A stretch of 64,000 bases of DNA from NCBI GenBank assembly GCA_002408285.1, contig DHRG01000049.1, forward strand, positions 5,647 through 69,646. Reading direction: 5' to 3'. This DNA comes from Peptococcaceae bacterium UBA5318. Its GTDB lineage: Bacteria > Bacillota > Peptococcia > DRI-13 > UBA5318. The position numbers and the translations under genes are program-made. The notes under the pieces were generated by a model that did no database searches, had not been told where the DNA came from, and saw only the letters and a program-made list of their open reading frames with translations. Positions 103 to 40,505 of this stretch are shown here, piece by piece (position 1 is the stretch's first letter; each line of letters opens with the position of its first letter).

Positions 103-624
103 TTACAGAAACAAAATGCCGCCAAGCCCGCATCCCAATATAATGAAAACGGGATTTAAACGGGTCGTCATCGTCAGGAGCAGGGCAATGAGAAAAAAGA
201 TCAGACCGGCGTAACCAATGATGGTGTCCTTTCCCACCAGGCAGGCGGCCCCCGCGATGAGTGACACCACAACAGGACGCAAGCCGCGGAAGGCCCCCTG
301 AAAAAGGGGGTTGTTTTTATTTTTGATACAGACCCCGGCCAGCGTGGAGATAAGGATCAAAGAGGGCAGGACGACGCCGATGGTGGAAACAACAGAACCT
401 GGAATCCCCGCCATTTTATACCCGACGTAGGTAGCCGTATTAATCGCGACCGGCCCCGGTGTTATTTCCGCGATCGCTATAATATCGGCGAATTGCGCCG
501 AGGTCAGCCAGGCATGGGTATAAACCACCTCCTGCTGGATGAGGGGGAGCATACCGTATCCGCCGCCGAAGCTAAAGGCGCCCAGAAAAGCAAACGTTCC
601 AAAAAGCTCTGGTAATAACATCAT
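103..624 (-). CDS. Chromate transporter family protein (short ChrA, downstream member of a pair)
   Basis: 173-aa polytopic membrane ORF with FGGGYGMLPLIQQEVV, a typical CHR-family motif. It overlaps the upstream partner by 4 nt. Confidence 0.8.
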   Translation of the reverse strand: MMLLPELFGTFAFLGAFSFGGGYGMLPLIQQEVVYTHAWLTSAQFADIIAIAEITPGPVAINTATYVGYKMAGIPGSVVSTIGVVLPSLILISTLAGVCIKNKNNPLFQGAFRGLRPVVVSLIAGAACLVGKDTIIGYAGLIFFLIALLLTMTTRLNPVFIILGCGLGGILFL

Positions 625-1220
625 CTTTCCTCCCCCGGTTGGCCGGGGAGTTTTTTGCTGTATAGAATGCCGGCGAGAGCGCCAAGAATAATCAATATAA
701 TGGGATGCACCCTAAAAAGCAGGAGTAAAATAAGGGCTGCAAGGGCCGCCAGGATATCAAAACGCTGGTGGAGCGCTTGCCTGCCCATGTTGAATGCGGC
801 GCCTAAGATGAGTGCGGCGACAGCCGGCCGGACGCCGTTAAAGAATTTTTGCAGGATTGCCTGTTGGCCCTGGGAAGCAATCAACATGGCAAAAAGCAGG
901 ATGATTATAAAGGAGGGGAGAACTGTGCCAAACAAAGCGGCGAGGGCTCCTTTTAACCCCTTGAGCCGATAACCCGCGAAGACGGCGGAATTAACCGCTA
1001 CAGGTCCTGGAGCAGCTTGAGTCACAGCCAGCATGTCAACAAAATCCTCAGGACTCATCCATTGATGGTTGTCAACAATCTCTCTTTGAATAATCGGGAT
1101 CATGGCAAATCCGCCGCCGAAGGTGGAGCTTCCGATTTTCAAAAAGGATGCAAACAAAGAGAAAAACGTTACGGGCTTTTGGAAACGGCAGGTCACGGGT
1201 CTTTCCCCCCTTTGACGCAT
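621..1220 (-). CDS. Chromate transporter family protein (short ChrA, upstream member of a pair)
   Basis: 199-aa membrane ORF with FGGGFAMIPIIQREIV. It is a paralog of the adjacent ORF, and paired half-size ChrA genes are a known arrangement. Confidence 0.8.
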   Translation of the reverse strand: MRQRGERPVTCRFQKPVTFFSLFASFLKIGSSTFGGGFAMIPIIQREIVDNHQWMSPEDFVDMLAVTQAAPGPVAVNSAVFAGYRLKGLKGALAALFGTVLPSFIIILLFAMLIASQGQQAILQKFFNGVRPAVAALILGAAFNMGRQALHQRFDILAALAALILLLLFRVHPIILIILGALAGILYSKKLPGQPGEER

Positions 1221-1347
1221 GATATATCTATATTATCATAACATAATGGAGCCTTAGGCTACTAATTTTAAGTTAATCATGCACAGGCGGAAGAAATATA
1301 ACATAAAAATAGTGGGGAAGAATAACGCAAAGGATGTGGGTGTGACA

Positions 1348-1626
1348 ATGGGCATGAACCAATTCATTCAAAGTTTGGCCGCCTTGCCGCAGATTGTGGA
1401 TTCGGTGAAAAATATGAATGAACAGGAAAAAGAGCAATTTGTCGGGCTGCTCGGGTTAGAAAATGAAGAGCGGGAAACGGCCATCAATCTGATAAGTTGC
1501 TTTCAGGAAGGAAGGTCCTTGGACCTTCAGGAGCAGCAGGCGGCTCAGGGATTATTTGAAAAAGCTCTGCAAATGAACGACTTGAGCGTGGCGGATTTGT
1601 TTAAAGTAACTATGAACGGCGGCTAA
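1348..1626 (+). CDS. Hypothetical small acidic protein
   Basis: ORF-track ORF 1279-1626. The internal ATG at 1348 is preceded by an AAGGA/GGGTG SD-like stretch, and a hairpin terminator follows the stop. No recognisable motif. Confidence 0.5.
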   Translation: MGMNQFIQSLAALPQIVDSVKNMNEQEKEQFVGLLGLENEERETAINLISCFQEGRSLDLQEQQAAQGLFEKALQMNDLSVADLFKVTMNGG

Positions 1627-1647
1627 AGGAGGCGGAGGCCTCCTTTT
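1625..1647 (+). terminator. Rho-independent terminator after the 1348-1626 ORF
   Basis: AAAGGAGGC-GGAG-GCCTCCTTT gives a 9-bp stem with a 4-nt loop, followed by a T run. Confidence 0.7.
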
Positions 1648-1700
1648 ACTATTGATCCGAACACTTTTTTGCGTGCAGAAACATATGATGAATAAAGTGT

Positions 1701-2318
1701 GTGAAAGAGGTGACAAGTGTGGCCAGTCTGCGTTTTACCTATAATGGGGACCGGCGTATGGAAAGAGGAAGAGTCCCTCTGTCCCCTTTTCTGCCAAGAT
1801 GCATACTCCCCCTGGAATATTCCCGTTTGAATCCGATAACATATGCCGCGAAACCTACAAAAGAAAACCAGGAATTAAAAACAGAAAACCAGGAACTAAA
1901 AACAGAAAATCAGGAATTAACCGGCGGTGCAGAACCTATAGCCACTCTGCCTGTGGCATATCCCGATCAAAATGATAGCGCTGAACAAGAAAAAGAAAAT
2001 ACGGCGCCTGTCAATGTCAGCGAACTTTTGGTAAATCGTTTGGATATATTGGAGGCTGGTCTGAATAAAACTTCCAGTCAGGTAGATCAGGCCAAGATTA
2101 TCTTAGATGATGTGATTTTTAAACTGGACAGCTTTTTACAGATTTTGCAAATCCTCTACGCCAATGAGGAAAAACGGCTGCAGGGACCGCAACTGCAGGC
2201 CGCTCCATCTCAAAAAACCACTAAGGATACCATTGATGAATTGCTTGAGCTATTGCAAACGCCTGCCATACAGGGAGTACTCCGTCAGTTTCTGATAAGT
2301 ATGATAGTTAAAAAATAA
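1701..2318 (+). CDS. Hypothetical coiled-coil protein with ENQELKT heptad repeats and a C-terminal IDxLLELLxxPAxQ motif
   Basis: 205-aa ORF whose start is uncertain (GTG at 1701 or around 1717). It has a 21-nt in-frame tandem repeat. Its C-terminal ~100 aa are paralogous to ORF 3216-3521. Confidence 0.6.
   Translation: MKEVTSVASLRFTYNGDRRMERGRVPLSPFLPRCILPLEYSRLNPITYAAKPTKENQELKTENQELKTENQELTGGAEPIATLPVAYPDQNDSAEQEKENTAPVNVSELLVNRLDILEAGLNKTSSQVDQAKIILDDVIFKLDSFLQILQILYANEEKRLQGPQLQAAPSQKTTKDTIDELLELLQTPAIQGVLRQFLISMIVKK
1863..1920 (+). repeat. 21-bp in-frame tandem repeat, about 2.8 copies, encoding ENQELKT
   Basis: GAAAACCAGGAATTAAAAACA / GAAAACCAGGAACTAAAAACA / GAAAATCAGGAATTAA, read directly from the sequence. 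Confidence 0.9.
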
Positions 2319-2332
2319 TTACGGGGTGGGAG

Positions 2333-2764
2333 ATGATGAATTATACCTCACCGTTTATGCCGGAGTTTTGGGAAAGTTACCGCCGCATGATGAACAATAC
2401 TTTGGAGCAGGCGCAGAATATGATGAAAAACATGGAAGCGCAAACAGGGATGCTTTCCCCGCATATGAAGGGGAAAGTAGAAGGAAACCAATGGATGAAT
2501 AACCAAGATCCTGATATACGGGTAGATAGTCATCACGTAACCGTCACTTTTCAGGTGGATAAGATCATTGATAAGAACAACACACAAATTCATTTAGAGG
2601 GATGTTATCTGATTTTAGATGGTTCCATTAAAGCCCGTATCGCATTGCCCGCAGCGGTTCAAAAATATGGAGGACGCGCTGTTTCCAAGCCCGGCGTATT
2701 AGAAGTAACGCTGCCCTTGGATAAGTATCATACCAAGCAAATCATCCCTATTGAAAATGTTTGA
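2333..2764 (+). CDS. Hsp20/alpha-crystallin-domain-like protein (CotM/CotP-like candidate)
   Basis: 143 aa. The C-terminal half has the ACD pattern (DIRVDSHHVTVTFQV...IHLEGCYLILDG...IALPAAV...GVLEVTLP). The SD GGTGGGAG sits upstream, and the gene is tightly linked to the preceding ORF. Confidence 0.6.
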   Translation: MMNYTSPFMPEFWESYRRMMNNTLEQAQNMMKNMEAQTGMLSPHMKGKVEGNQWMNNQDPDIRVDSHHVTVTFQVDKIIDKNNTQIHLEGCYLILDGSIKARIALPAAVQKYGGRAVSKPGVLEVTLPLDKYHTKQIIPIENV

Positions 2765-2828
2765 TAATTCGTAGGAACTCTTCTTTTTGTTCATACATAG
2801 GATACATAAACGGAGGAGGTAAGGATAG

Positions 2829-2939
2829 ATGAAAATATCATATGCTAAAGGCTTTGGCATTGTCTTTTTGGTTATTTTTATTCTTCTCTTTTTCCCTGGA
2901 ATAGGTGTTTCCAGTTCCAGTGTGAAAGGTAAGAGTTAA
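2829..2939 (+). CDS. Tiny hydrophobic peptide, YjcZ-like (36 aa), absent from the ORF track
   Basis: ATG is preceded by GGAGGAGG. Translation is MKISYAKGFGIVFLVIFILLFFPGIGVSSSSVKGKS. The G-x-G plus Ile/Leu/Phe core resembles the tiny-TM sporulation peptide family. Confidence 0.45.
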   Translation: MKISYAKGFGIVFLVIFILLFFPGIGVSSSSVKGKS

Positions 2940-2973
2940 GATCCACAAACAACTTATTTAAGGAGGGAGTCTT

Positions 2974-3096
2974 ATGGTAGAGGAAAGCTTAGGCACACCG
3001 TTTTGGGGTTCGGGGATAATATGTATTATCTTTTTAATCATCATTCTTGCTCTGATTTGCCCCTTTTTTTTCCGCGTCTGTGATCCGGTTTTTTAA
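2974..3096 (+). CDS. Tiny hydrophobic peptide, YjcZ-like (40 aa), absent from the ORF track
   Basis: ATG is preceded by AAGGAGGGAG. Translation is MVEESLGTPFWGSGIICIIFLIIILALICPFFFRVCDPVF. Confidence 0.45.
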   Translation: MVEESLGTPFWGSGIICIIFLIIILALICPFFFRVCDPVF

Positions 3097-3215
3097 GGCT
3101 GATTGGGGGCATATCTGGCCCAGTTTCGCCACTGGCGCCAACATTCATGTTGGCGCCTCGCTATTACTATCCTCACATCGCTAGGTCAGAGAGATGTATA
3201 AATAGAGGTGAAAAT

Positions 3216-3521
3216 ATGGCTAATATGACAGGTACATTGGACCAAATCACGATGATGACCGACCAAATCAATCAGGTCAAGGGAAAATGCGAAAATTACC
3301 GGCAATTAATGGACGAAGGGACCTATAAGCTCAATGCTGTTTTAAACATCGTCGATAGTTTAAAGGTTCGGGAGCAGAATATCATGACGACCGGCATGGA
3401 TCCCTCCGTAATTCAACAAATGAACGAGGAGCAAATTGACAGTTTATTGGAATTACTGAAATCACCCGCTTTTCAAAGCCTCGCCCGCCAGATCCTGATA
3501 AAATGGGCAGCTAAATCCTAG
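3216..3521 (+). CDS. Hypothetical coiled-coil protein, paralog of the C-terminus of ORF 1701-2318
   Basis: ATG at 3216 follows the SD GAGGTG (the track ORF starts at 3147). Its C-terminus QIDSLLELLKSPAFQSLARQILI matches TIDELLELLQTPAIQGVLRQFLI in the paralog. Confidence 0.6.
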   Translation: MANMTGTLDQITMMTDQINQVKGKCENYRQLMDEGTYKLNAVLNIVDSLKVREQNIMTTGMDPSVIQQMNEEQIDSLLELLKSPAFQSLARQILIKWAAKS

Positions 3522-3532
3522 TATGATACGTT

Positions 3533-3577
3533 AAAAGCCCAGCACGTGTTGAGTTACACAAGTGCTGGGCTTAAAAT
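3533..3577. terminator. Bidirectional hairpin terminator between convergent genes
   Basis: AGCCCAGCAC...GTGCTGGGCT forms a 10-bp perfect stem flanked by A and T runs. Confidence 0.7.
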
Positions 3578-3606
3578 TTGCCGTATGTATTACAAGGTCG
3601 GAAAAT

Positions 3607-3885
3607 CTATTTTTGGAAACAATCGCGGCAATAAACAGGTCTTACACCGGTCGGCTTAAAAGGGACCTGGGTTTCTACGCCGCAATTGGAGCAATTAACA
3701 GTATAAAACTGGCGTTCCCGGCCATCATTTTTACGATCATTGATCTGTTGTTTACGGGCTCTCCTGCAGGTTAAGCAACGTGCCGGCTCATTCTGGAACC
3801 CCTTTTCAGCATAAAACTCCTGTTCCTGTGCTGAAAAAATGAACTCATTTCCACAATCTTTACATACTAGGGTCTTGTCCTCCAT
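3607..3885 (-). CDS. Zinc-ribbon domain protein (two CxxC...CxxC units)
   Basis: 92 aa with CKDCG...CLTCR and CSNCG...CRDC. Confidence 0.7.
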   Translation of the reverse strand: MEDKTLVCKDCGNEFIFSAQEQEFYAEKGFQNEPARCLTCRRARKQQINDRKNDGRERQFYTVNCSNCGVETQVPFKPTGVRPVYCRDCFQK

Positions 3886-4109
3886 ATTCTCTACCTCCTG
3901 AGCGGATATTCCGGCCTACTTGTCGGATCCAGTATTATCTAACCCAGGATCAGAGAATAGTTTTACATAGCTATTCCCAACTTCAAGCAGGTGCTGGTAT
4001 TTTCAGTATACAATGAGATACAATATTTTGCAAATTTTTTCTTTATATTCTTGTTATATTTTCATATGCCAGTCTAATAAATCAATGAATAATAAGACAA
4101 ACTACGTAT

Positions 4110-4514
4110 ATGATAAAGCGATTTTTCTTATATGGGTCATTAGGGTGGACAATGGAGGTCTTTTGGACGGGACTGGGTTCCTTGCTGCAGGGAAATTGGC
4201 AATTACCGGCCTATACCTATTTGTGGATGTTCCCGATTTATGGCTTGGGTGCTTTTTTTGAAACAATTCATGACAAGATCCGCGGCTTACCCTGGTATCT
4301 AAGGGGTATATTGTGGATGCTGCTGATCTTTGCGCTTGAATATAATACCGGATGGCTCTTAGCTTCCTTTTTAGGACGCTGTCCTTGGGATTATGGAAGT
4401 AATACGCCCTATAGCATCCACGGATGGATCCGGCTGGATTATGCTCCGGTCTGGTTTGTTGTGGGTTTGATTTATGAACAGATTCATGATATTCTGGACC
4501 GAATCAGGATTTAA
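4110..4514 (+). CDS. Small polytopic membrane protein (putative ABC-transporter type IV / DUF1113-like)
   Basis: 134 aa and Trp-rich TM segments (GSLGWTMEVFWTG...CPWDY). The family assignment is from memory. Confidence 0.55.
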   Translation: MIKRFFLYGSLGWTMEVFWTGLGSLLQGNWQLPAYTYLWMFPIYGLGAFFETIHDKIRGLPWYLRGILWMLLIFALEYNTGWLLASFLGRCPWDYGSNTPYSIHGWIRLDYAPVWFVVGLIYEQIHDILDRIRI

Positions 4515-4583
4515 GGTCTTGCGGAGAGAGAAAAAAGAATATATCATCTGACTGTAATCAGTTTATTAAAAGGTGGTTTATTC

Positions 4584-5228
4584 ATGCGTATGCGGAGAAA
4601 AACCGGTATCCTTGAGAAATTGGCAGCTTCACCGGAATATATTATCTTTAGGCCATCCCTGGATATTAAGGGTTATTGGAAGAAGGCCTTTGGTAACGAA
4701 AACCCTCTTTATGTGGAAATTGGGAGCGGGAAGGGCAGGTTTATTACCTCTATGGCCTTAAAGTATCCGCATATTAATTTTATAGGACTTGAGAGAGAAC
4801 CGGAAATAGTTGCCCATGCTTTGGCGATACTCAAAAAAAGACCTGTGAATAATATTCGGTTGATTCTGGCAGATGGTGAAAACCTGGCGGCGTATTTGGC
4901 TCCTGGGGAAATTGAACGGTTATTTTTGAATTTTAGCGATCCCTGGCCGAAAAAGCGTCATACTAAAAGGCGGCTCACACATCCGGTATTTTTAAACCTC
5001 TATAAAACTCTTTTCAAAGGCCCCGGGGAAATTCATTTAAAAACGGACAACCTGGACTTTTTCGAATATTCCTTACTGGCGTTTGCGGAAAACGGCTTTT
5101 CTCTGCGAAGAATCACCTATGATCTTCATCAAAGTCCCTGGACGGAAAATGTGATGACGGAGTACGAGGAGAAGTTTTCTTTGCTGGGACGGCCTATCTG
5201 CCGTTGTGAGGCCGTCTGCCCATCATGA
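4584..5228 (+). CDS. trmB: tRNA (guanine46-N7)-methyltransferase
   Basis: 214 aa with the VEIGSGKGRF SAM motif and NFSDPWPKKRHTKRRL. Confidence 0.9.
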   Translation: MRMRRKTGILEKLAASPEYIIFRPSLDIKGYWKKAFGNENPLYVEIGSGKGRFITSMALKYPHINFIGLEREPEIVAHALAILKKRPVNNIRLILADGENLAAYLAPGEIERLFLNFSDPWPKKRHTKRRLTHPVFLNLYKTLFKGPGEIHLKTDNLDFFEYSLLAFAENGFSLRRITYDLHQSPWTENVMTEYEEKFSLLGRPICRCEAVCPS

Positions 5229-6601
5229 TTGTTAGTGTGGTGAATAAATTGATGCGGTTACCGGAAGAATTCAACATTCAGATGCGGGGTTTGTTAACGG
5301 AGGAATGGGAGGAATTTCTGGCTGTCTGGCATGTTCCGCCTCACCTGGGACTTCGTGTGAACACCCTGAAGATACCGGTGGATCAATTCCTCAAGCGCAC
5401 TTCTTTTCATCTGGAACCCATCGCCTGGACTACGGACGGTTTTTACTGCAGTTCTGAGGAAAGACTTGGTAAACATCCCTATCATCAAGCCGGGCTTTAC
5501 TATTTACAAGAGCCGAGCGCTATGGCCCCGGTGGCCTGCCTTGATGTGCAGCCGGGGGATAAAGTCCTGGATTTGTGCGGGGCTCCCGGGGGGAAAACGA
5601 CCCAAATCGCGGCCAGCTTGCAAGGAAAGGGTCTTTTGGTTACCAATGATATCAAAGCGGAACGCGTCAAATCCCTGGTGTGGAATGTTGAGCGCTGGGG
5701 GGCGGGGAATGTGGTCGTAGCCAACGAGGACCCCCATAAATTAGCGGTCAGTTTTCCGGGCTTTTTTGACAAGGTCTTGATTGATGCGCCTTGTTCAGGG
5801 GAAGGTATGTTTCGCAAGGATGAGCGGGCCATCCGCAGTTGGTCGGTCTATAATAATGAGTCTTGCGCAGCTTTACAAAAGCAAATATTGGAACAGGGCG
5901 CCCTCATGTTAGCTGAACAGGGGCGGCTTCTCTATTCCACCTGCACTTTTTCTTCCCAGGAAAATGAGGCTGTGATCGCTGATTTTTTAAGCAAACATCC
6001 TGAATTTACGCTGGCGCCCCTCCCGCTGGAGTACGGTTGGAGGCCTGGATTAGCCGGGTGGCCTGAAACGGCCAATGTCAGGAGGTTATGGCCCCATAAA
6101 GTAAGGGGCGAGGGACATTTCTTAGCGCTTTTAGAAAAGAAAAGTACCGGTGAAATTCGAGCGAAGACCGGCCCGTTTATGACCGCGCCCAAAGGGCTTG
6201 ACTCTTTTTGGAGCTTTATGGAAGAGAATTTACTGGCTATACCTGCGGGATCCTTAGTTTTGCAGGAGCCTTTTCTTTATTGCGTTCCCCCGGGGCTTCC
6301 GGATCTCCAAAACCTGAAGATTGTCCGGCCCGGGCTGTTTATGGGCATATTAAAAAAGGGGCGTTTTGAACCATCTCAGGCCTTAGCCATGGGACTAACC
6401 CCCGGAAGCGTACAAAGAAAGCTGCAGTTAGCAGTGGATGATAAAGGGATAGAACGATACCTGAAAGGCGAAACCCTGATGTACAGCGGTAGTACAGGCT
6501 GGACCCTGGTTTGCCTGGAGGAATTTCCGCTTGGCTGGGCTAAGCAGACAGGGGACTATCTGAAGAATTATTATCCGCCCGGATGGCGGTTAATGGGTTA
6601 G
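5225..6601 (+). CDS. rsmF: rRNA cytosine-C5 methyltransferase, RsmB/RsmF (NOL1/NOP2/Sun) family
   Basis: 458 aa with DLCGAPGGKT, DAPCSGEGMFRKD and a TC catalytic Cys (YSTCTF). It overlaps trmB by 4 nt. Confidence 0.85.
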   Translation: MIVSVVNKLMRLPEEFNIQMRGLLTEEWEEFLAVWHVPPHLGLRVNTLKIPVDQFLKRTSFHLEPIAWTTDGFYCSSEERLGKHPYHQAGLYYLQEPSAMAPVACLDVQPGDKVLDLCGAPGGKTTQIAASLQGKGLLVTNDIKAERVKSLVWNVERWGAGNVVVANEDPHKLAVSFPGFFDKVLIDAPCSGEGMFRKDERAIRSWSVYNNESCAALQKQILEQGALMLAEQGRLLYSTCTFSSQENEAVIADFLSKHPEFTLAPLPLEYGWRPGLAGWPETANVRRLWPHKVRGEGHFLALLEKKSTGEIRAKTGPFMTAPKGLDSFWSFMEENLLAIPAGSLVLQEPFLYCVPPGLPDLQNLKIVRPGLFMGILKKGRFEPSQALAMGLTPGSVQRKLQLAVDDKGIERYLKGETLMYSGSTGWTLVCLEEFPLGWAKQTGDYLKNYYPPGWRLMG

Positions 6602-33934: not shown

Positions 33935-36900
33935 ATGAAGATTGACAAGTCAGTTCTAAAGTTTAAGGGTGTAAAATTAGTAACCGCCTTTGGCATTGTG
34001 GTGATAGCGTTTGCCTTGTTATTTACGGGCCTGGAACGGTTAGGATACTTTTTGCGCCCGGCCGCGACCGGGGAACTTAAGATCGTTGCTTTAAACCAGG
34101 ATAGTATAGGTGTTGCCGAGGATAGCGCGTTTTTGTTACAAAGCCCCAGCCCCCTGGATGAAAAAACAGTGTTAAAAACGCTTCAAGTCGAGCCTGGGTT
34201 CCAGTTTACCCTGGAAAAATCCGCCGGGGGCCGGGAATATACGATTATCCCTCAGGAAAGGCTGGCTTCGAATACCATTTATAAACTGTCGTTTGATACT
34301 ACCGGGATGGATAAAGATAATTTCCAATGGGCTTTCCAGACAAAGGGAAAATTTCGGGTTATAAGAACACTGCCTGCTGATAAAACCACCCATGTCCCGG
34401 TAAACACCGGCATTGAACTTACTTTTTCTTACGAGAAGTTTGATAATAATAAACTACAGGAATATTTCAAGGTTTCTCCACAGGTCGCGGGGCGTTTTGA
34501 AATACGCAAGAAGACCGTTACCTTTGTTCCAAAATCGCTTCAGCCGGCGACCGTCTATACCGTTACGGTAAAAAAGGGTTTTCCTCTTTTAGGGAGCGGG
34601 ACCGGGCTGGACGAAGATTATTCATTTAGTTTTGAAACTGCGCCGATAGAGAAAAAAACGACGCAGTTTACCTTTGATTTAGACGCTAAACTAATGGAGT
34701 TTTCTACTAAAGAAACGCCCGCTTACCCTGTTTATTTCTATTCGGACCGGAATAATCCGGTTGTTAACATATCTCTCTATTGCTACCCGGAATCAAAACC
34801 CTTTATCGAAGACCTTGCGGGCAGGGATGAAATTCCCTCCTGGTCATATTCCGCTTTAAACGGTTACCGTCAGGACATGAGTAAATTGTTTAAATATAGT
34901 GAGTTCCAAACAGAATTCCTGTCTGTGGATCCGTATAATCATTATCTTATTTTTCCTAAGCCCTTACCGGCAGGGTATTATACAGCGGAAATCAAAGCGG
35001 GAGAGGTTATCCGGCAGGTATGGTTTCAGGTTTCGGATTTGGCGGTTTATCAGGCTTTAAATGAGCAAAACTGTTTATTCTGGGCGAATGATCTTGAAAC
35101 GGGTAAACCTGTTCCAGACATCGCTTTATGGGTAGAAAGCCTTCAACAAAGCTTTTTTGGTAATAGCAGCGGGATTGTGTTAGTTGATAAAAACCTGCGG
35201 CGGAACAAAAAAGAGTACGCTTTACTGAAAGCCGCCGGGAAAGAATTAGTGGTCCCGTTAGAGGCTGCGGAGGCCGGTTATCAAAATAACAACAGTCAAA
35301 GCTGGCTGAAAGCCCGGGATTATTGGAAATACATATACTTGGACCGGGAACTGTATAAACCGGGCGATATAGTCCGTTTCTGGGGTGTTTTGGCGCCGCG
35401 GGCCGGGGATACCCGGCAAATCGAAGAAATTGAGCTGGAAGTGATGGGTACGGAGGGCCCGCTGTATGAAGGGGCTGAACACGCCCCCATTGTAACCAAA
35501 AAGGTAGCGGTCGCCGAAAAAACCTTTACGGGAGCAATACAACTGCCCGTACTCAAACCAGGTTACTATTATGTGAATGTTAAACTGGGAGCGGTAAATA
35601 TCATCTCCCGCGGTTTTTCAGTAGAAACATATCAAAAGCCCTCGTACCAGCTCGCTCTCGCTTCCGAGAAAGAGGCCGTTTTTTCCGGAGAAAAAACCGG
35701 TTTTTCAGCTACCGCCACTTTCTTTGAGGGTACGCCTGTACCGGGACAGGGTTTGACTTATTTTATAGATGGCGACAAGGGAACGGTTTACACTGACGAT
35801 AACGGGACAGCGGTTATTCCTTGTTCTCCCCAAGCGGGAGAAGACTTATTTCAACCCTATCGGTACCTTTATCTGGGCGTGAGCGCTACGATGCCGGAGT
35901 CGGGAGAAATCACAGCCTCCGGGGGCGTCTATCTGTTTAGAAGCAGCGTGTACCTGACAAGTGAAGTAAGACGCCAGGGAAATGCGTTTACTTTGCAAAC
36001 AAAATTATCTAATGTGGATTTAGACAGTATTAATTCAGGCTCCGATCCGACGGAGGAGAATTTTGTGCATAGCCCTGCGGGAAATAATTTGATCAAGGGG
36101 AGCATTTATCAAAATATCTGGGAGAAAGTAGAAGTGGGATCGCGGTATAATTTTATCAGTAAACAGGTTGAAAAAATATATTCTTATAAGCATTCCAGTA
36201 AACATATCAACGATTTTACCATGACCACCGATGACAATGGCGAAGCTGTCTACCACGGTAATCTTAATAATAGAAATTCTTACTATGCGGAGCTGGTCGC
36301 TCAGGACAGCCAGGGACGTAAAACAGGGAAACGGGTCACCTTATCCGTTGGCATGTATCAGGATGATCAAACGATGTACTATCACCTCAATGGGTCCCAG
36401 AAAGCCGAAGGGTACGCGGTGGGGGAGGATGTCGACATATCCTTTATGGGCAGCGAAAATATATTAGCCCCAAGGGAACAGGGATTCTTGTATTTCGGTG
36501 GGCAGAAAAGAATTGACACTTATCTGGTCAGCAACAGTCCGCAATACCGGTTTACCTTTAAAGATGACCACAGCCCAAATATCAATATATATGGGGTTTA
36601 TTTTGACGGCAGCGCTTACCATGAAACACCCTCCTACTTGATACCTTTAGATAAAAAAACCAAGCAACTGCAGGTTAAAATAGAAATTGACAAGAAAGTG
36701 TACCGGCCCCAAGAGAAAGTCAAACTCACCTTATATGTTACCGACTGTGATAATAAGCCGGTAAACGCCCAGGTGAATCTCAATCTGGTGGACGAAGCCC
36801 TTTATAGTCTGCAGGATCAACAAGTAAACCTTTTGACAGAGCTTTATAATGATTATATTTTTCCGCTGATGGTGACCCGGATATCCCATTTCCATCCTGG

Positions 36901-38803
36901 TTACATAGCAGGCGCGGAGTCGGGGGGAGAAGGAGATGGGAGCCGTGGGGACTTTCGTGATACCGTGCTTTTTACCAGTCTTAAAACGAACAGTAAGGGA
37001 AAGGCGGAAACGGAATTTTTCCTGCCGGATAATTTAACCTCCTGGCGCGTAACTTACCAAGCCTTCACGACTGACTTGCAGGGTGGGAGCGGGACCTGTC
37101 AAATTCCTGTAAAACAGCCCTTTTTTGTAGAAATGACGATGAATGATACAGCTCTGGAAGGCGACCAGCCCACCCTTATTTTACGCGCCTTTGGTGAAAA
37201 GCTTAGGCCAAATTATCTGGTAACCTATACAATGAAGCTGGTTAACCCCAAGGGCGAGGAATTCTTAGGAGCCGGGGTAGGGAAAGCCTTTCAGCCGTAC
37301 GATTTGGTTTTGCCGACGCTCATAAGCGGCAAATATCATTTGACGATAGAAGGAAGCAGCCAGGAATACCGCGATAGTATCACCCGGGATTTCATTGTTG
37401 AAAAGTCATTTTTGGAACAAACCGTGACCCGTTTTGATTTAGTAAAAGATGATTTGCGTTTAAAAGGATCACAGGAAGGAACCACGACCCTGATCTTTAA
37501 TGATTATGAGAAGACGCAGTATCTGACCGGACTATATAACTTGAGCTGCCTTTATGGTAGCCGGGTGGAACAACAAATAGCCAAAAGGGAAGCCAGAAAA
37601 TTATTAAATCAATATTTCCCGCAGGATAAATTCTTTTTCGACCCGGAGGATACGTCTTTGCAGCAGTATCAGAAACCGGACGGCGGGATCAGTATTTTGC
37701 CCTATGGCGAAAGTGATCTTGCGCTTTCAGCCTTGATAGCGTCTTATCATGCCGACGATTTCGATCAAAAAGCTTTGGCTGCGTATTTTTACCGGAAAAT
37801 TGACGACGGTGAAAACGCAGAAGATGAAACGTTAGCCCTCTTGGGTTTGGCCGCTCTTGACGAACCGGTGCTCACCGCCATTTATAACCGCTTGCAGGAT
37901 GTGTATCTGCCTTCGAGCGAAAAGATACATCTGGCTCTGGCTTGCCTCGAGATAGGCAACGGCGCTTTTGGGCGGCAGGTCTACCGTGAGATCATGAGTA
38001 AATATGGCGAAAATATGGGAACTTCTTTGCGGATGAATATCGGACTGGATCATAATGAAAAACTGCAAGCGACGGCCAAAATGGCCCTTTTAGCCGCAAG
38101 GTTGGAGCAACCGGAAAAAAACAAGCTGTATCAGCATCTCTTAGACTATCAGAATACGGAAACGCTTAATTCCATTGAACAGGTACAGATCTTACAGTAT
38201 CTTCTGCGCTATATGGACCCTGATCCGGTCGGCTTTACGTATAAACTAAATAATAACAAAGTAAGCAAAACCTTGAAGGACCGGGAGTATTTTAAGCTGA
38301 CCCTCCCTATGGGCGAGGCGGAGAATATCAGATTCAGCCAAATTCAGGGTAAAGTAGGAGTTATGTCTGCTTATACCAAACCCTATCAAATCCGAGACGT
38401 ATTGACCCAGGAGGGTTTGAATATCACACGTATGTACCGGGTCAATCAGAAGAAAGTAAATGTTTTGCACCGCACGGATCTGATCGAGGTGGTCCTTACC
38501 TATTCGGTCGGGGAAAAAGCGCCCGCCGGGGATTACGAAATCGTCGATATCCTTCCGGCTGGGCTGCGGTACATCACACGGCCCTATGTTTATGACCCGG
38601 AACGAAAAGTGAAATGGGTGTACCCCAGTGAGGTAAAGGGACAGAAGATCACTTTTGCCGTAGAAAAAGGAAGCGGCACGATTTCCTATTATGCCCGTGT
38701 TGTTACGCCGGGAAAATTTACTGTGGAACCGCCGCTTTTGAGTAATACCCGGAATTCAGGCATCCATTTCCTGGGAACCGGAAACAGGATCGAGATTAAA
38801 TAA
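33935..38803 (+). CDS. Membrane-anchored alpha-2-macroglobulin-family protein lacking an intact thioester motif
   Basis: 1622 aa with an N-terminal TM and repeated Ig/MG-like segments. It has the A2M hallmark FLPDNLTSWRV. At the thioester position it reads CLYGSRVEQ instead of CxEQ. Confidence 0.75.
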   Translation: MKIDKSVLKFKGVKLVTAFGIVVIAFALLFTGLERLGYFLRPAATGELKIVALNQDSIGVAEDSAFLLQSPSPLDEKTVLKTLQVEPGFQFTLEKSAGGREYTIIPQERLASNTIYKLSFDTTGMDKDNFQWAFQTKGKFRVIRTLPADKTTHVPVNTGIELTFSYEKFDNNKLQEYFKVSPQVAGRFEIRKKTVTFVPKSLQPATVYTVTVKKGFPLLGSGTGLDEDYSFSFETAPIEKKTTQFTFDLDAKLMEFSTKETPAYPVYFYSDRNNPVVNISLYCYPESKPFIEDLAGRDEIPSWSYSALNGYRQDMSKLFKYSEFQTEFLSVDPYNHYLIFPKPLPAGYYTAEIKAGEVIRQVWFQVSDLAVYQALNEQNCLFWANDLETGKPVPDIALWVESLQQSFFGNSSGIVLVDKNLRRNKKEYALLKAAGKELVVPLEAAEAGYQNNNSQSWLKARDYWKYIYLDRELYKPGDIVRFWGVLAPRAGDTRQIEEIELEVMGTEGPLYEGAEHAPIVTKKVAVAEKTFTGAIQLPVLKPGYYYVNVKLGAVNIISRGFSVETYQKPSYQLALASEKEAVFSGEKTGFSATATFFEGTPVPGQGLTYFIDGDKGTVYTDDNGTAVIPCSPQAGEDLFQPYRYLYLGVSATMPESGEITASGGVYLFRSSVYLTSEVRRQGNAFTLQTKLSNVDLDSINSGSDPTEENFVHSPAGNNLIKGSIYQNIWEKVEVGSRYNFISKQVEKIYSYKHSSKHINDFTMTTDDNGEAVYHGNLNNRNSYYAELVAQDSQGRKTGKRVTLSVGMYQDDQTMYYHLNGSQKAEGYAVGEDVDISFMGSENILAPREQGFLYFGGQKRIDTYLVSNSPQYRFTFKDDHSPNINIYGVYFDGSAYHETPSYLIPLDKKTKQLQVKIEIDKKVYRPQEKVKLTLYVTDCDNKPVNAQVNLNLVDEALYSLQDQQVNLLTELYNDYIFPLMVTRISHFHPGYIAGAESGGEGDGSRGDFRDTVLFTSLKTNSKGKAETEFFLPDNLTSWRVTYQAFTTDLQGGSGTCQIPVKQPFFVEMTMNDTALEGDQPTLILRAFGEKLRPNYLVTYTMKLVNPKGEEFLGAGVGKAFQPYDLVLPTLISGKYHLTIEGSSQEYRDSITRDFIVEKSFLEQTVTRFDLVKDDLRLKGSQEGTTTLIFNDYEKTQYLTGLYNLSCLYGSRVEQQIAKREARKLLNQYFPQDKFFFDPEDTSLQQYQKPDGGISILPYGESDLALSALIASYHADDFDQKALAAYFYRKIDDGENAEDETLALLGLAALDEPVLTAIYNRLQDVYLPSSEKIHLALACLEIGNGAFGRQVYREIMSKYGENMGTSLRMNIGLDHNEKLQATAKMALLAARLEQPEKNKLYQHLLDYQNTETLNSIEQVQILQYLLRYMDPDPVGFTYKLNNNKVSKTLKDREYFKLTLPMGEAENIRFSQIQGKVGVMSAYTKPYQIRDVLTQEGLNITRMYRVNQKKVNVLHRTDLIEVVLTYSVGEKAPAGDYEIVDILPAGLRYITRPYVYDPERKVKWVYPSEVKGQKITFAVEKGSGTISYYARVVTPGKFTVEPPLLSNTRNSGIHFLGTGNRIEIK

Positions 38804-38908: not shown

Positions 38909-39037
38909 TCAAAAGCATGTGCGAAACGTAGGGAAGAGCAAAAGGAGTAAGATAATCAGGAACAGAATCGCGAAGGGCCAAATTCCAAAACCAGCACCGC
39001 AACCAGGACCGCAACCAGGGGCAGCAACTTCCGACAT
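38909..39037 (-). CDS. Tiny hydrophobic peptide, YjcZ-like (42 aa), absent from the ORF track
   Basis: ATG follows AAGGAGGAA. Translation is MSEVAAPGCGPGCGAGFGIWPFAILFLIILLLLLFPTFRTCF. The terminator lies directly downstream. Confidence 0.55.
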   Translation of the reverse strand: MSEVAAPGCGPGCGAGFGIWPFAILFLIILLLLLFPTFRTCF

Positions 39038-39200
39038 AGTATATTCCTCCTTAATGATAATTTAATGTGGTTTCTAGCCAATGTATTTTATGCACAATGG
39101 CTCTAATAGGTAACTAAACGGCAAAAGAATCTTCTTGGACCATGAAAATTATGGGAATAATACAGACAAAGCACACGGTTGAGCAGCGGGGGTTAGATGG

Positions 39201-39458
39201 ATGAATAAAGAATCCCGGCGGGAATTTTTTGTGACAGACCCTATTCAGGTCAAAAATTTAATTATACGGCCGGTGATAACCCTGCAAGTTAATTATGTTT
39301 ATCTGGGCGAAGGGAAGGAAATAGTGGGTATTACTTTTACCTTGTTATGGATATTTTTGCTGGAACAAGATGAGATCTATCTGGCCGGTTTTGGCAAGAA
39401 AGCTTCCTTGCGGGAGATAGAGGATTGCTATGAGGCTATAGGATGTTCTGAAGGTTAA
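39201..39458 (+). CDS. Hypothetical protein (weak call)
   Basis: 85-aa ORF with a weak SD (GGGGGT). Its 3-prime end overlaps the convergent DUF4363 gene by 23 nt. No motif recognised. Confidence 0.3.
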   Translation: MNKESRREFFVTDPIQVKNLIIRPVITLQVNYVYLGEGKEIVGITFTLLWIFLLEQDEIYLAGFGKKASLREIEDCYEAIGCSEG

Positions 39459-39828
39459 ACCTCTCTTTTTCCGGAATATGTTTGATGTAATGGATCAGAT
39501 TATTCAGCTCGGCCTCGGCGTCGCTTAATTTCTCATTTCTTAAATAACTTTTTAATTTAGACATACTTTCTTCGATCCTGTCTATTTCCTGATGATGAAT
39601 TAACATTGGCCAGTATACCCGGAACTTATGCCATTTGTTTTCTATTTCACGGTATATTAAATTCGCCTGGTTCCAGTCTTCTTTTTCCAGAAAACCCTGA
39701 ATCCGGCCAGCGGGGGTAAGCAGGGATTGCGCCCCGGAGCTTAATAGCTGAAAAGTACCCCAGCCGAATAAGAGCAAGGCAAAGAATAAAAGCAAGAGGC
39801 TTAAAGGGACAAGGTATTTTTTCAACAT
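39436..39828 (-). CDS. DUF4363-family membrane-anchored protein
   Basis: 130 aa with an N-terminal TM. It is translationally coupled to the upstream DUF421 gene, which is the usual pairing. Confidence 0.65.
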   Translation of the reverse strand: MLKKYLVPLSLLLLFFALLLFGWGTFQLLSSGAQSLLTPAGRIQGFLEKEDWNQANLIYREIENKWHKFRVYWPMLIHHQEIDRIEESMSKLKSYLRNEKLSDAEAELNNLIHYIKHIPEKERFNLQNIL

Positions 39829-40505
39829 TACAGTCCCTCTTTTCGCTGCCAGGTAATGGCGCCGGTATTATCAACACTGGCGAAAAACAGGTCTTTATAG
39901 TTATTGATTCCTTGCTCATGGAGGGTTTCCAGAAATTTATTTTCTGACAGCCGGGCCTTCTCAAGGTTGGCCCGAATCATTTTTCCATCAATAATGAGGG
40001 AAAGAGGGAGTCCAGGGTTGGGCGCCTTTATTCCCAGATCCTTGGTAATGAGGGGGCGGTTTTCAACTTTGGGGATCACACTTAATTCACCATTTGTTTC
40101 CAGGATGGCATAGTCCACTTCACTGAGGTTCGGGAAATTTTTAACGCGCAACTGTTCCAGGAGATCGTTGATGTTCATGCGAAGATGACGCAATTCGCTT
40201 TCCTTGATCAATCCTCTTTCGATCAGGATACTGGGGCGTCCGCAAATAATTTTCCGCATCTTTTCACTCTTCATGGACCAATAGGCTAACGTTATCTGGG
40301 CCAGAAGCAAAGTCACAATGGGGATAATACCGCTTAAAAGCGGTATTTCTGTGTCGGACATAGGGATGGCGGCCAATTCGGAGATCATGATAGCGATCAC
40401 CAGTTCGTAGGGCTGCAATTCGCCGATTTGAGGCTTCCCCATGATCCGCATGACGATCACGACTAAAAAATAAAGGATGAGAGTTCGAAAAAAGACGATT
40501 AACAT
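39828..40505 (-). CDS. DUF421 (YetF/YdfS-like) membrane protein
   Basis: 225 aa with N-terminal MLIVFFRTLILYFLVVIVMRIMGK..GELQPYELV and a soluble C-terminal domain. Confidence 0.75.
   Translation of the reverse strand: MLIVFFRTLILYFLVVIVMRIMGKPQIGELQPYELVIAIMISELAAIPMSDTEIPLLSGIIPIVTLLLAQITLAYWSMKSEKMRKIICGRPSILIERGLIKESELRHLRMNINDLLEQLRVKNFPNLSEVDYAILETNGELSVIPKVENRPLITKDLGIKAPNPGLPLSLIIDGKMIRANLEKARLSENKFLETLHEQGINNYKDLFFASVDNTGAITWQRKEGL

Follow-up and report, generated by a model that had tools for sequence, protein, structure and literature searches.

A cluster of small-protein genes with sigma-K-type promoter motifs as a candidate late-sporulation locus in uncultured Peptococcaceae

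Which cellular process might draw together six small genes whose larger products fall outside any named protein family is the question raised by a locus near one end of a 64-kb window, a stretch of 64,000 nucleotides (nt) from contig DHRG01000049.1 of Peptococcaceae bacterium UBA5318. The six open reading frames (ORFs), here named A to F, are all encoded on the forward strand. Gene A (1348-1626) codes for an acidic protein of 92 amino acids (aa) with an isoelectric point (pI) of 4.2 and no known family, B (1719-2318, 199 aa) has a GTG start codon, and C (2336-2764, 142 aa) begins 15 nt past the stop codon of B. Two peptides with a single transmembrane (TM) segment are encoded by D (2829-2939, 36 aa, core FLVIFILLFFPG) and E (2974-3096, 40 aa), while F (3216-3521, 101 aa) consists of a helical module alone, which it has in common with the C-terminus of B. 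A preliminary description of this DNA had cautiously guessed at a spore coat, assembly or granule-associated function. The guess at the spore coat or its assembly is strengthened by motifs resembling sigma-K promoters before nearly every transcription unit; no support was found for a granule-associated function. With a probability of roughly 0.6, the cluster is read here as a set of separately transcribed late mother-cell genes, expressed from sigma-K-type promoters and coding for lineage-specific coat or outer-layer proteins of the spore. The families to which these proteins belong are new, but lineage-specific late-sporulation coat genes are well known as a kind of system.

Sigma-K-type promoter motifs and gene starts

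A two-block element, (A)AC-17-nt spacer-CATAnnnTA, is found upstream of A, B, D and some of the F genes, as well as upstream of G, a third type of peptide gene found in relatives, in the 140-nt upstream regions of seven loci (related loci are denoted by L numbers). It is of the published sigma-K promoter type (PMC3789822, from which the consensus was taken), with which the -35 AC, the spacer of about 17 nt, the -10 CATAnnnTA and the distance to the start codon all agree. Counted as AC-N16/17-CATAnnnT[AT] at 16-60 nt upstream of A, B, D, G or F, the motif occurs in 15 of the 38 upstream regions of the seven loci, where 0.29 are expected from composition-matched resampling (maximum of 5 in 2000 trials), an enrichment of about 50-fold, and it is absent from all 65 control upstream regions of the window. 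Across the 64-kb window the strict motif occurs five times, with 1.1 expected. Only two of the 11 relaxed matches in the window precede a Shine-Dalgarno (SD) sequence and an ORF, and these two, upstream of D and of a peptide gene at 38909-39037 on the reverse strand, are 36 kb apart.

The promoter motif of A (1283-1310, forward strand) is near-consensus, gcAC-N17-CATAAAAAT, and its -35 block GCACA and -10 block CATAnnATT are kept in L003, L005, L010, L012 and L014. In alignments of the DNA upstream of A, which has otherwise diverged, the two promoter blocks (-35 and -10) and the ribosome-binding site (RBS) are all that stays conserved. The ATG at 1279, from which A had been read in the preliminary description, lies inside this conserved promoter block, and the RBS AAAGGATGTG is kept in all relatives; the start of A is therefore placed at the ATG at 1348. 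The motif of B (1663-1690, forward strand) is AC-N17-CATATGATG, with CATATGATA or CATATTATG at an identical 17-nt spacing in relatives (AC-TCTTTACGTGTTTTCGT-CATATGATA in L003), and the B-like gene in the distant lineage L018 is preceded by GTAAC-N17-CATATTATG. The start of B is the GTG at 1719 rather than 1701, yielding an N-terminus, MASLRF..., that is kept in 20 of 22 homologues. The six forward-strand ORFs described previously are real genes and the motifs quoted from them are as written, including the small acidic protein placed ahead of the others, which is A; the starts of A and B had been set too far 5'. The D promoter motif (2777-2804, forward strand) is an exact match, ACTCTTCTTTTTGTTCATACATAGGATA (AC-TCTTCTTTTTGTTCATA-CATAGGATA), and each of the seven loci examined has its equivalent, AAC-N17-CATAG(G/A)AT(A/G) (AC-GCTTTATAAATGTCGGT-CATAGAATA in L012). 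E has no promoter motif of its own and is hence probably co-transcribed with D. F is preceded by CATA(C/G)AATA in L003 (AC-ATATAGAAGTGCGGCTA-CATACAATA), L005 and L013, the window copy being degenerate, and G in L005 by AC-CACATAAATTTTTACTT-CATACAATA.

The -10 element differs little between sigma-E and sigma-K (PMC3789822), and the cluster might instead be an early mother-cell module under sigma-E, working at the forespore membrane, be it in engulfment, in synthesis of the cortex or in the coat basement. The -35 block of A, GCACAGG, is one base off a GCATA-like sigma-E element, and small TM peptides would need a membrane as their site of action. Before B, D, G and F, however, the conserved -35 block is (A)AC at 17-nt spacing and not ATA, and no homology to any sigma-E-regulated morphogenetic protein was found, making this alternative unlikely.

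Several observations weigh against the late-sporulation interpretation. Within the cluster only the D promoter is a strict match, with A and B off by one to two bases and F degenerate, exact matches before A, B, D, G and F being found in relatives, and the significance of the 15 matches in 38 regions is overstated because the related loci are not independent samples. No protein of the cluster matches a known coat, exosporium or sporulation family in Pfam or NCBIfam, nor do A, B and F in the PDB, and the flanking genes chrA, trmB and rsmF are of housekeeping type. A sigma-70-like match, TTGACG-16-TATCAT (10 of 12 positions), is also present at 1212-1239 on the forward strand. Together with the housekeeping neighbourhood and the small heat-shock protein (sHSP)-like features of C, this match would suit a vegetative envelope or membrane-stress module, in which a divergent sHSP, helical proteins behaving like PspA or phasins, and the peptides would be expressed from housekeeping promoters, the sigma-K-type motifs being coincidental or serving another sigma factor. 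The sigma-70-like site, whose function as a promoter is uncertain, is, however, alignable only with L016, its conservation ends with the closest strains, and the region has many matches of this kind (13, with 6.9 expected). The sigma-K-type motif is conserved and enriched as described above. Furthermore, C is missing from most lineages, and no similarity to PspA, phasins or stress families was found in Pfam, NCBIfam, PDB or Foldseek searches. A vegetative stress function is consequently about as improbable as a sigma-E module.

The presence of sigma-K-type promoters before almost every gene makes a role in the spore coat or at the spore surface the most likely one, and several further features fit it. 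These are the many tiny, separately promoted units with hairpins between them, the low-complexity and fast-evolving sequences with variation in repeat number and a very narrow distribution, and the hosts, which are from a mostly spore-forming family. A narrow and patchy distribution is typical of coat proteins, which are known to be lineage-specific, low-complexity coat proteins yet to be identified have been predicted in other Firmicutes, and 11 of the 12 Peptococcaceae genomes analysed are listed as spore-formers (PMC3533761). Genes for DUF421/YetF and DUF4363 proteins elsewhere in the window were also counted in favour of this role, as were the place of yjcZ and cotM in the sigma-K regulon of B. 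subtilis and, in L018, the position of the A and B pair beside a GH18+SLH gene.

As predicted from these motifs, the transcription units would be A, B-C, D-E and F, plus the dispersed peptide gene at 38909-39037, read by mother-cell RNA polymerase with sigma-K, or possibly sigma-E. Their products would most likely be lineage-specific proteins with a structural or assembly role in the coat or the outer layers of the spore. B and F may associate through their common module of about 100 aa, and A may be a partner or chaperone of B, which it always accompanies. The N-terminal peptide of B, MASLRF...GERRP, and the Pro/Tyr-rich stretch that follows it might dock this protein onto the spore surface or onto another coat protein, the variable acidic repeats serving as a spacer or lying exposed at the surface. 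The single-TM peptides of the D, E and G types would insert in the outer forespore membrane or the coat basement, a placement modelled on proposals for other small mother-cell peptides, and C, where present, could be an accessory in coat assembly similar to CotM or CotP. All of these contacts between proteins, the location of the products in the spore and the dependence of the genes on sigma-K are predictions.

In a more speculative extension, which is doubtful, A, the B/F module proteins and the FLVIxILLxFPG peptides would build an undescribed, clade-specific spore surface structure, where the micro-peptides anchor a helical scaffold of B and F, a way of attaching the coat that would stand in for machinery of the SpoVM/SpoVID/SafA type, which Clostridia lack. 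Little is charted of spore coats beyond Bacillus and C. difficile, and the cluster offers three protein families that are new (A, the B/F module and micro-peptides of the FPG type) and a conserved set of sigma-K-type promoters for environmentally important anaerobes known from metagenomes alone. Its practical value lies mainly in annotation, with candidate spore-surface markers and with promoters for predicting the late sporulation regulon in metagenome-assembled genomes (MAGs). No current concept is challenged by it.

Protein families of the cluster

The C-terminal 100 or so residues of B are homologous to the whole of F (BLASTP E 5e-10, 26% identity over 94 aa), and profile-profile comparison of the two families with hhalign gives a probability of 98.9% and an E-value of 2.8e-17 over 99 columns. 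The paralogy of B and F through this C-terminal module, proposed in the preliminary description, is thus well beyond chance. In the AlphaFold2 (AF2) model of F (predicted local distance difference test score, pLDDT, of 74), a long helix at residues 2-58 is followed by three short helices, the last two of which carry the IDSLLELLKSPAFQSLARQIL motif. B is built of four parts, namely an invariant N-terminal peptide, MASLRFxFxGERRP, a Pro/Tyr-rich stretch, an acidic linker and the helical module of about 100 aa. The linker is of low complexity and highly variable, and includes three copies of an ENQELKT heptad, encoded by a 21-bp tandem repeat of 2.8 units (1862-1920, forward strand). One unit fewer is present in the sister strain P0020, so that repeat number differs between strains. 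The earlier label of coiled-coil proteins, checked in part on the long helix in the model of F and the heptad repeat in B, may apply.

Neither A, B and F nor their family alignments gave anything significant in Pfam, NCBIfam, PHROGs or PADLOC, sequence-profile searches of the PDB with the three proteins returned noise only, and a Foldseek search of the PDB with the F model found no match. The larger proteins A, B and F accordingly stand outside any named family, as had been supposed, and B and F do not map to a well-characterised one in the family or PDB searches. In its architecture B resembles SpoVID, SafA, CotO and the C. difficile proteins CdeC and CdeM, in that it likewise combines a terminal docking-like motif with a variable acidic repeat linker, and, as in coat and exosporium morphogenetic proteins as a class, it is taxonomically narrow with a repeat number that varies by strain. 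There is no sequence or domain similarity between B and these proteins, and the likeness is one of architecture only.

In the representative search, a protein of 1020 aa (P0081) contains HEAT-like repeats that echo the QIDSLLELLKSPAFQSLARQ motif of B and F. The helix-turn-helix IDSLLELLxxPxxQ...RQ of B and F resembles one unit, RQAIDSLLAMLDNPxLxDSLR, of this protein, which suggests that the QIDSLLELLKSPAFQSLARQ motif may form a HEAT-like helical hairpin. The likeness is probably a matter of convergence and not of homology. YjlC (PDB chain 9snk_B) was rejected as a relative of B and F on a sub-threshold E-value of 1 in the PDB profile search, and DUF6241 was matched by six of 27 module members at E>=0.029 only. 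Unlike in the HEAT-like repeat proteins, YjlC and DUF6241, with which B and F have no architecture in common, the B/F motif is present in a single copy, and homology to all three was rejected, the scores being below significance or summed over repeats.

The N-terminus of C is helical and rich in Met, Asn and Gln, and its beta-rich C-terminal part has weak similarity to sHSPs. It scores 13 bits against Pfam HSP20 (PF00011; E 0.11), below the cut-off of 20.8, and the best of the four C family members reaches an E-value of 0.024. Against the NCBIfam Hsp20 and Hsp14 models the E-values are 0.012-0.013, at scores far under their cut-offs, and PHROGs and PADLOC hold no significant match to C. Eight of the ten PDB matches of a profile of four C sequences are sHSPs, at weak E-values of 0.06-1.4, and hhalign aligns C with Hsp16.5 of M. 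jannaschii at a probability of 81% and an E-value of 1.2e-5 over the last 44 residues only. At the C-terminal end, the four C homologues all have an unvarying I137-P138-I139, which lines up with the tail of Hsp16.5, so that an IXI-type motif is present. The AF2 model of C, built from a two-sequence alignment, has a pLDDT of 51, and Foldseek matches of that model are meaningless. C is thus weakly indicated to be a divergent sHSP-like protein of unproven family membership, and its previous designation as an alpha-crystallin-domain protein is weak, with a score below the Pfam HSP20 cut-off but a matching C-terminal third and the IPI tail.

Among B. subtilis coat proteins, CotM is alpha-crystallin-like and encoded in the sigma-K regulon (PMC517825). 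As in cotM and cotP, C is small and sHSP-like, with an LP..V....A....G.L.V.LP strand pair and a C-terminal I-P-I, and its cluster has the same, late mother-cell type of promoter. In contrast to CotM and CotP, to which it is likened by description, C is sub-threshold for Pfam HSP20, aligns over only its last 44-70 or so residues and has an unusual Met/Asn/Gln-rich N-terminal helix. It is encoded in three of the eight lineages that contain the cluster, namely the window lineage, L010 and L013 (45% identity, same position). Comparison of the syntenic loci shows that it is missing from the other five (L003, L005/L011, L007-9/L015, L012 and L014), on which basis it was rejected as a core component. 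The suggested co-occurrence of an Hsp20-like gene with the LLELLxxPAxQ-motif proteins consequently does not hold. A word-indexed search with C gave one near-identical protein, and the homologues of 45% identity surfaced only on scanning the fetched loci.

D and E are hydrophobic (grand average of hydropathy, GRAVY, of 1.2 and 1.7), are preceded by strong SD sequences and have homologues in every related locus, and comparison with a strain of about 93% identity shows three synonymous and no non-synonymous changes. They are genuine genes under purifying selection, and correspond to the two SD-preceded tiny hydrophobic ORFs of the preliminary description. In relatives, D is a protein of 83-94 aa with a Lys/Glu-rich N-terminal extension of about 45 aa (L003 5448-5699, L005 5049-5333 and L012 6560-6811), which is missing from the window copy, reduced to its 36-aa TM core. 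Most relatives have one or two genes for G peptides (...FAILFLVILILLLFPGFFGGYGY), which the window cluster lacks; the G peptides have the core F(A/G)I.FLVI.ILL.FPG in common with D. A paralogue of D and G lies 36 kb from the cluster (38909-39037, reverse strand) and codes for a 42-aa peptide containing ...FAILFLIILLLLLFP... (MSEVAAPGCGPGCGAGFGIWPFAILFLIILLLLLFPTFRTCF). This gene is monocistronic, with an SD sequence, a downstream hairpin and an exact match to the sigma-K-type promoter at 39084-39111 on the reverse strand. It is adjoined by genes at 39436-40505 on the same strand that code for a DUF4363 protein (E 3e-27) and a protein whose C-terminal domain is DUF421/YetF (E 2e-36). In Bacillus the DUF421 proteins belong to the spore membrane, and in C. 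difficile they are under sigma-G control (listed in PMC3789822).

D and E gave nothing significant in Pfam, NCBIfam, PHROGs or PADLOC. The peptides had previously been called YjcZ-like, and yjcZ, coding for a tiny TM peptide, is sigma-K dependent in B. subtilis (PMC517825). Eleven of the 12 peptides considered (D, E, nine from relatives and the 38909-39037 paralogue) were scanned for YjcZ TIGR01732 or Tiny_TM_bacill in NCBIfam and Pfam, with a limit of E<=1 for D and E and of E<=10 for those from relatives, and none matched; the paralogue, scanned as 38912-39037 against Pfam only at E<=0.01, gave no match either, and weak peptide matches may be hidden by the composition filters of HMMER. With no profile match up to E<=10, the likeness is one of size and composition. 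In form the peptides agree with YjcZ, being shorter than 50 aa, single-TM and multi-copy with a Gly/aromatic-rich N-terminus, a feature frequent in this peptide family (GYGCYPYPFGRGFAILFLVILILLLFPGFFGGYGY in the G type); a Gly-rich N-terminus is missing from D and E of the window and present in the 38909-39037 peptide. Similarly to YjcZ peptides, SpoVM and CmpA, the D, E and G peptides are of 35-50 aa with one hydrophobic helix, multi-copy and preceded by sigma-K-type promoters. Unlike YjcZ, they have a core of their own, FLVIxILLxFPG, with a Pro-Gly end, and the D-type relatives carry the long charged N-terminal extension.

Several paralogous hydrophobic peptides of 35-50 aa in tandem would also be expected of membrane-active toxins or bacteriocin-like products of the cannibalism type, with the helical proteins functioning in immunity or export. 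There is, however, no leader or double-glycine motif, no transporter, protease or modification enzyme is encoded nearby, and PADLOC and PHROGs gave no matches. The peptides are moreover chromosomal, syntenic and conserved instead of diversifying, and a toxin function is very improbable.

Distribution and synteny in related genomes

When 1.84 billion representative proteins were searched exhaustively with an HMMER profile of the B/F module, 53 matched, about 50 of which are true members, either B-like (150-340 aa) or F-like (105-127 aa). The three weakest matches, P0081-P0083, are unrelated repeat proteins. Word-indexed searches recovered 14 F-type and 23 B-type proteins. Those members that can be traced to a genome belong to Peptococcaceae or Clostridia MAGs, and one peptide pattern occurs in six species among 185,579 species genomes, all of which are MAGs labelled Peptococcaceae, Clostridia or Clostridiaceae. 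The cluster is thus confined to a few uncultured Peptococcaceae-like Clostridia.

Eight lineages have the gene order A-B-(C)-D-E-(G)-F, in each case between sbcCD/DUF188/chrA and zf_Tbcl/CmpB-like/trmB/rsmF, so that the genes are co-conserved in relatives, the point on which their treatment as one cluster had been made to depend. In L007 the peptide genes are located beyond chrA and B abuts F. A is directly upstream of B in every case, including the distant L018, where only an A-like gene (hhalign probability 98.7%) and a B-like gene are left, adjacent to each other. On the strength of this persistent pairing, A and B are the core of the cluster. The L018 pair (2916-5708) adjoins a GH18+SLH gene and a multihaem cytochrome gene, and its B-like protein is without the MASLRF N-terminus.

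A narrow distribution and proteins that are all ORFans could also point to what is left of a mobile element, a prophage or a defence island. This is largely refuted already by the stable position between sbcCD/DUF188/chrA and zf_Tbcl/trmB/rsmF over eight lineages. Integrase genes and repeat or tRNA boundaries are lacking, and there are no PHROGs or PADLOC matches, leaving this explanation with hardly any likelihood. Gas-vesicle, phasin or polyhydroxyalkanoate (PHA)-granule, PspA-like and defence-island functions were dropped, as no supporting gene or match was found.

Between the window and L016/L017, the spacers 1627-1718, 2765-2828, 2940-2973 and 3097-3215 differ at one to two positions each, against 15-18% of differing codons in A, B and C; of the two, the non-coding DNA is the better conserved. 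Regulatory constraint along with rapid evolution of the proteins may account for this, as may recent recombination.

Hairpins and neighbouring genes

Inverted-repeat searches recovered three hairpins in the cluster, which a generic terminator scan had missed because their T-runs are short. The first (1625-1646, forward strand), after A, has perfect 9-bp arms followed by TTTT and is terminator-like, with a similar hairpin after A in L005. The second (3134-3157, forward strand), with perfect 11-bp arms, lies between the peptide genes and F. All relatives have a hairpin at this position, with a T-run behind it in L003 and L005. The third (3535-3572, on neither strand in particular), with 15-bp arms, separates F from a convergent zf_Tbcl gene and is likely a bidirectional terminator marking the end of the cluster. 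Rfam detected no RNA family, whether in the region at E<=0.1 or over the whole window at gathering scores.

The convergent gene (3607-3885, reverse strand) codes for a double treble-clef zinc-ribbon protein (zf_Tbcl and zf_Tbcl_2) and faces F in every related locus. On the opposite side, a split pair of Chromate_transp (ChrA-like) genes (103-1220, reverse strand) is divergent from A. Some relatives have this pair while L003 and L012 lack it, which makes the upstream border of the cluster variable. Further along the window, a very large ORF (33935-38803, forward strand) codes for a protein of 1622 aa with a TM segment at its N-terminus.

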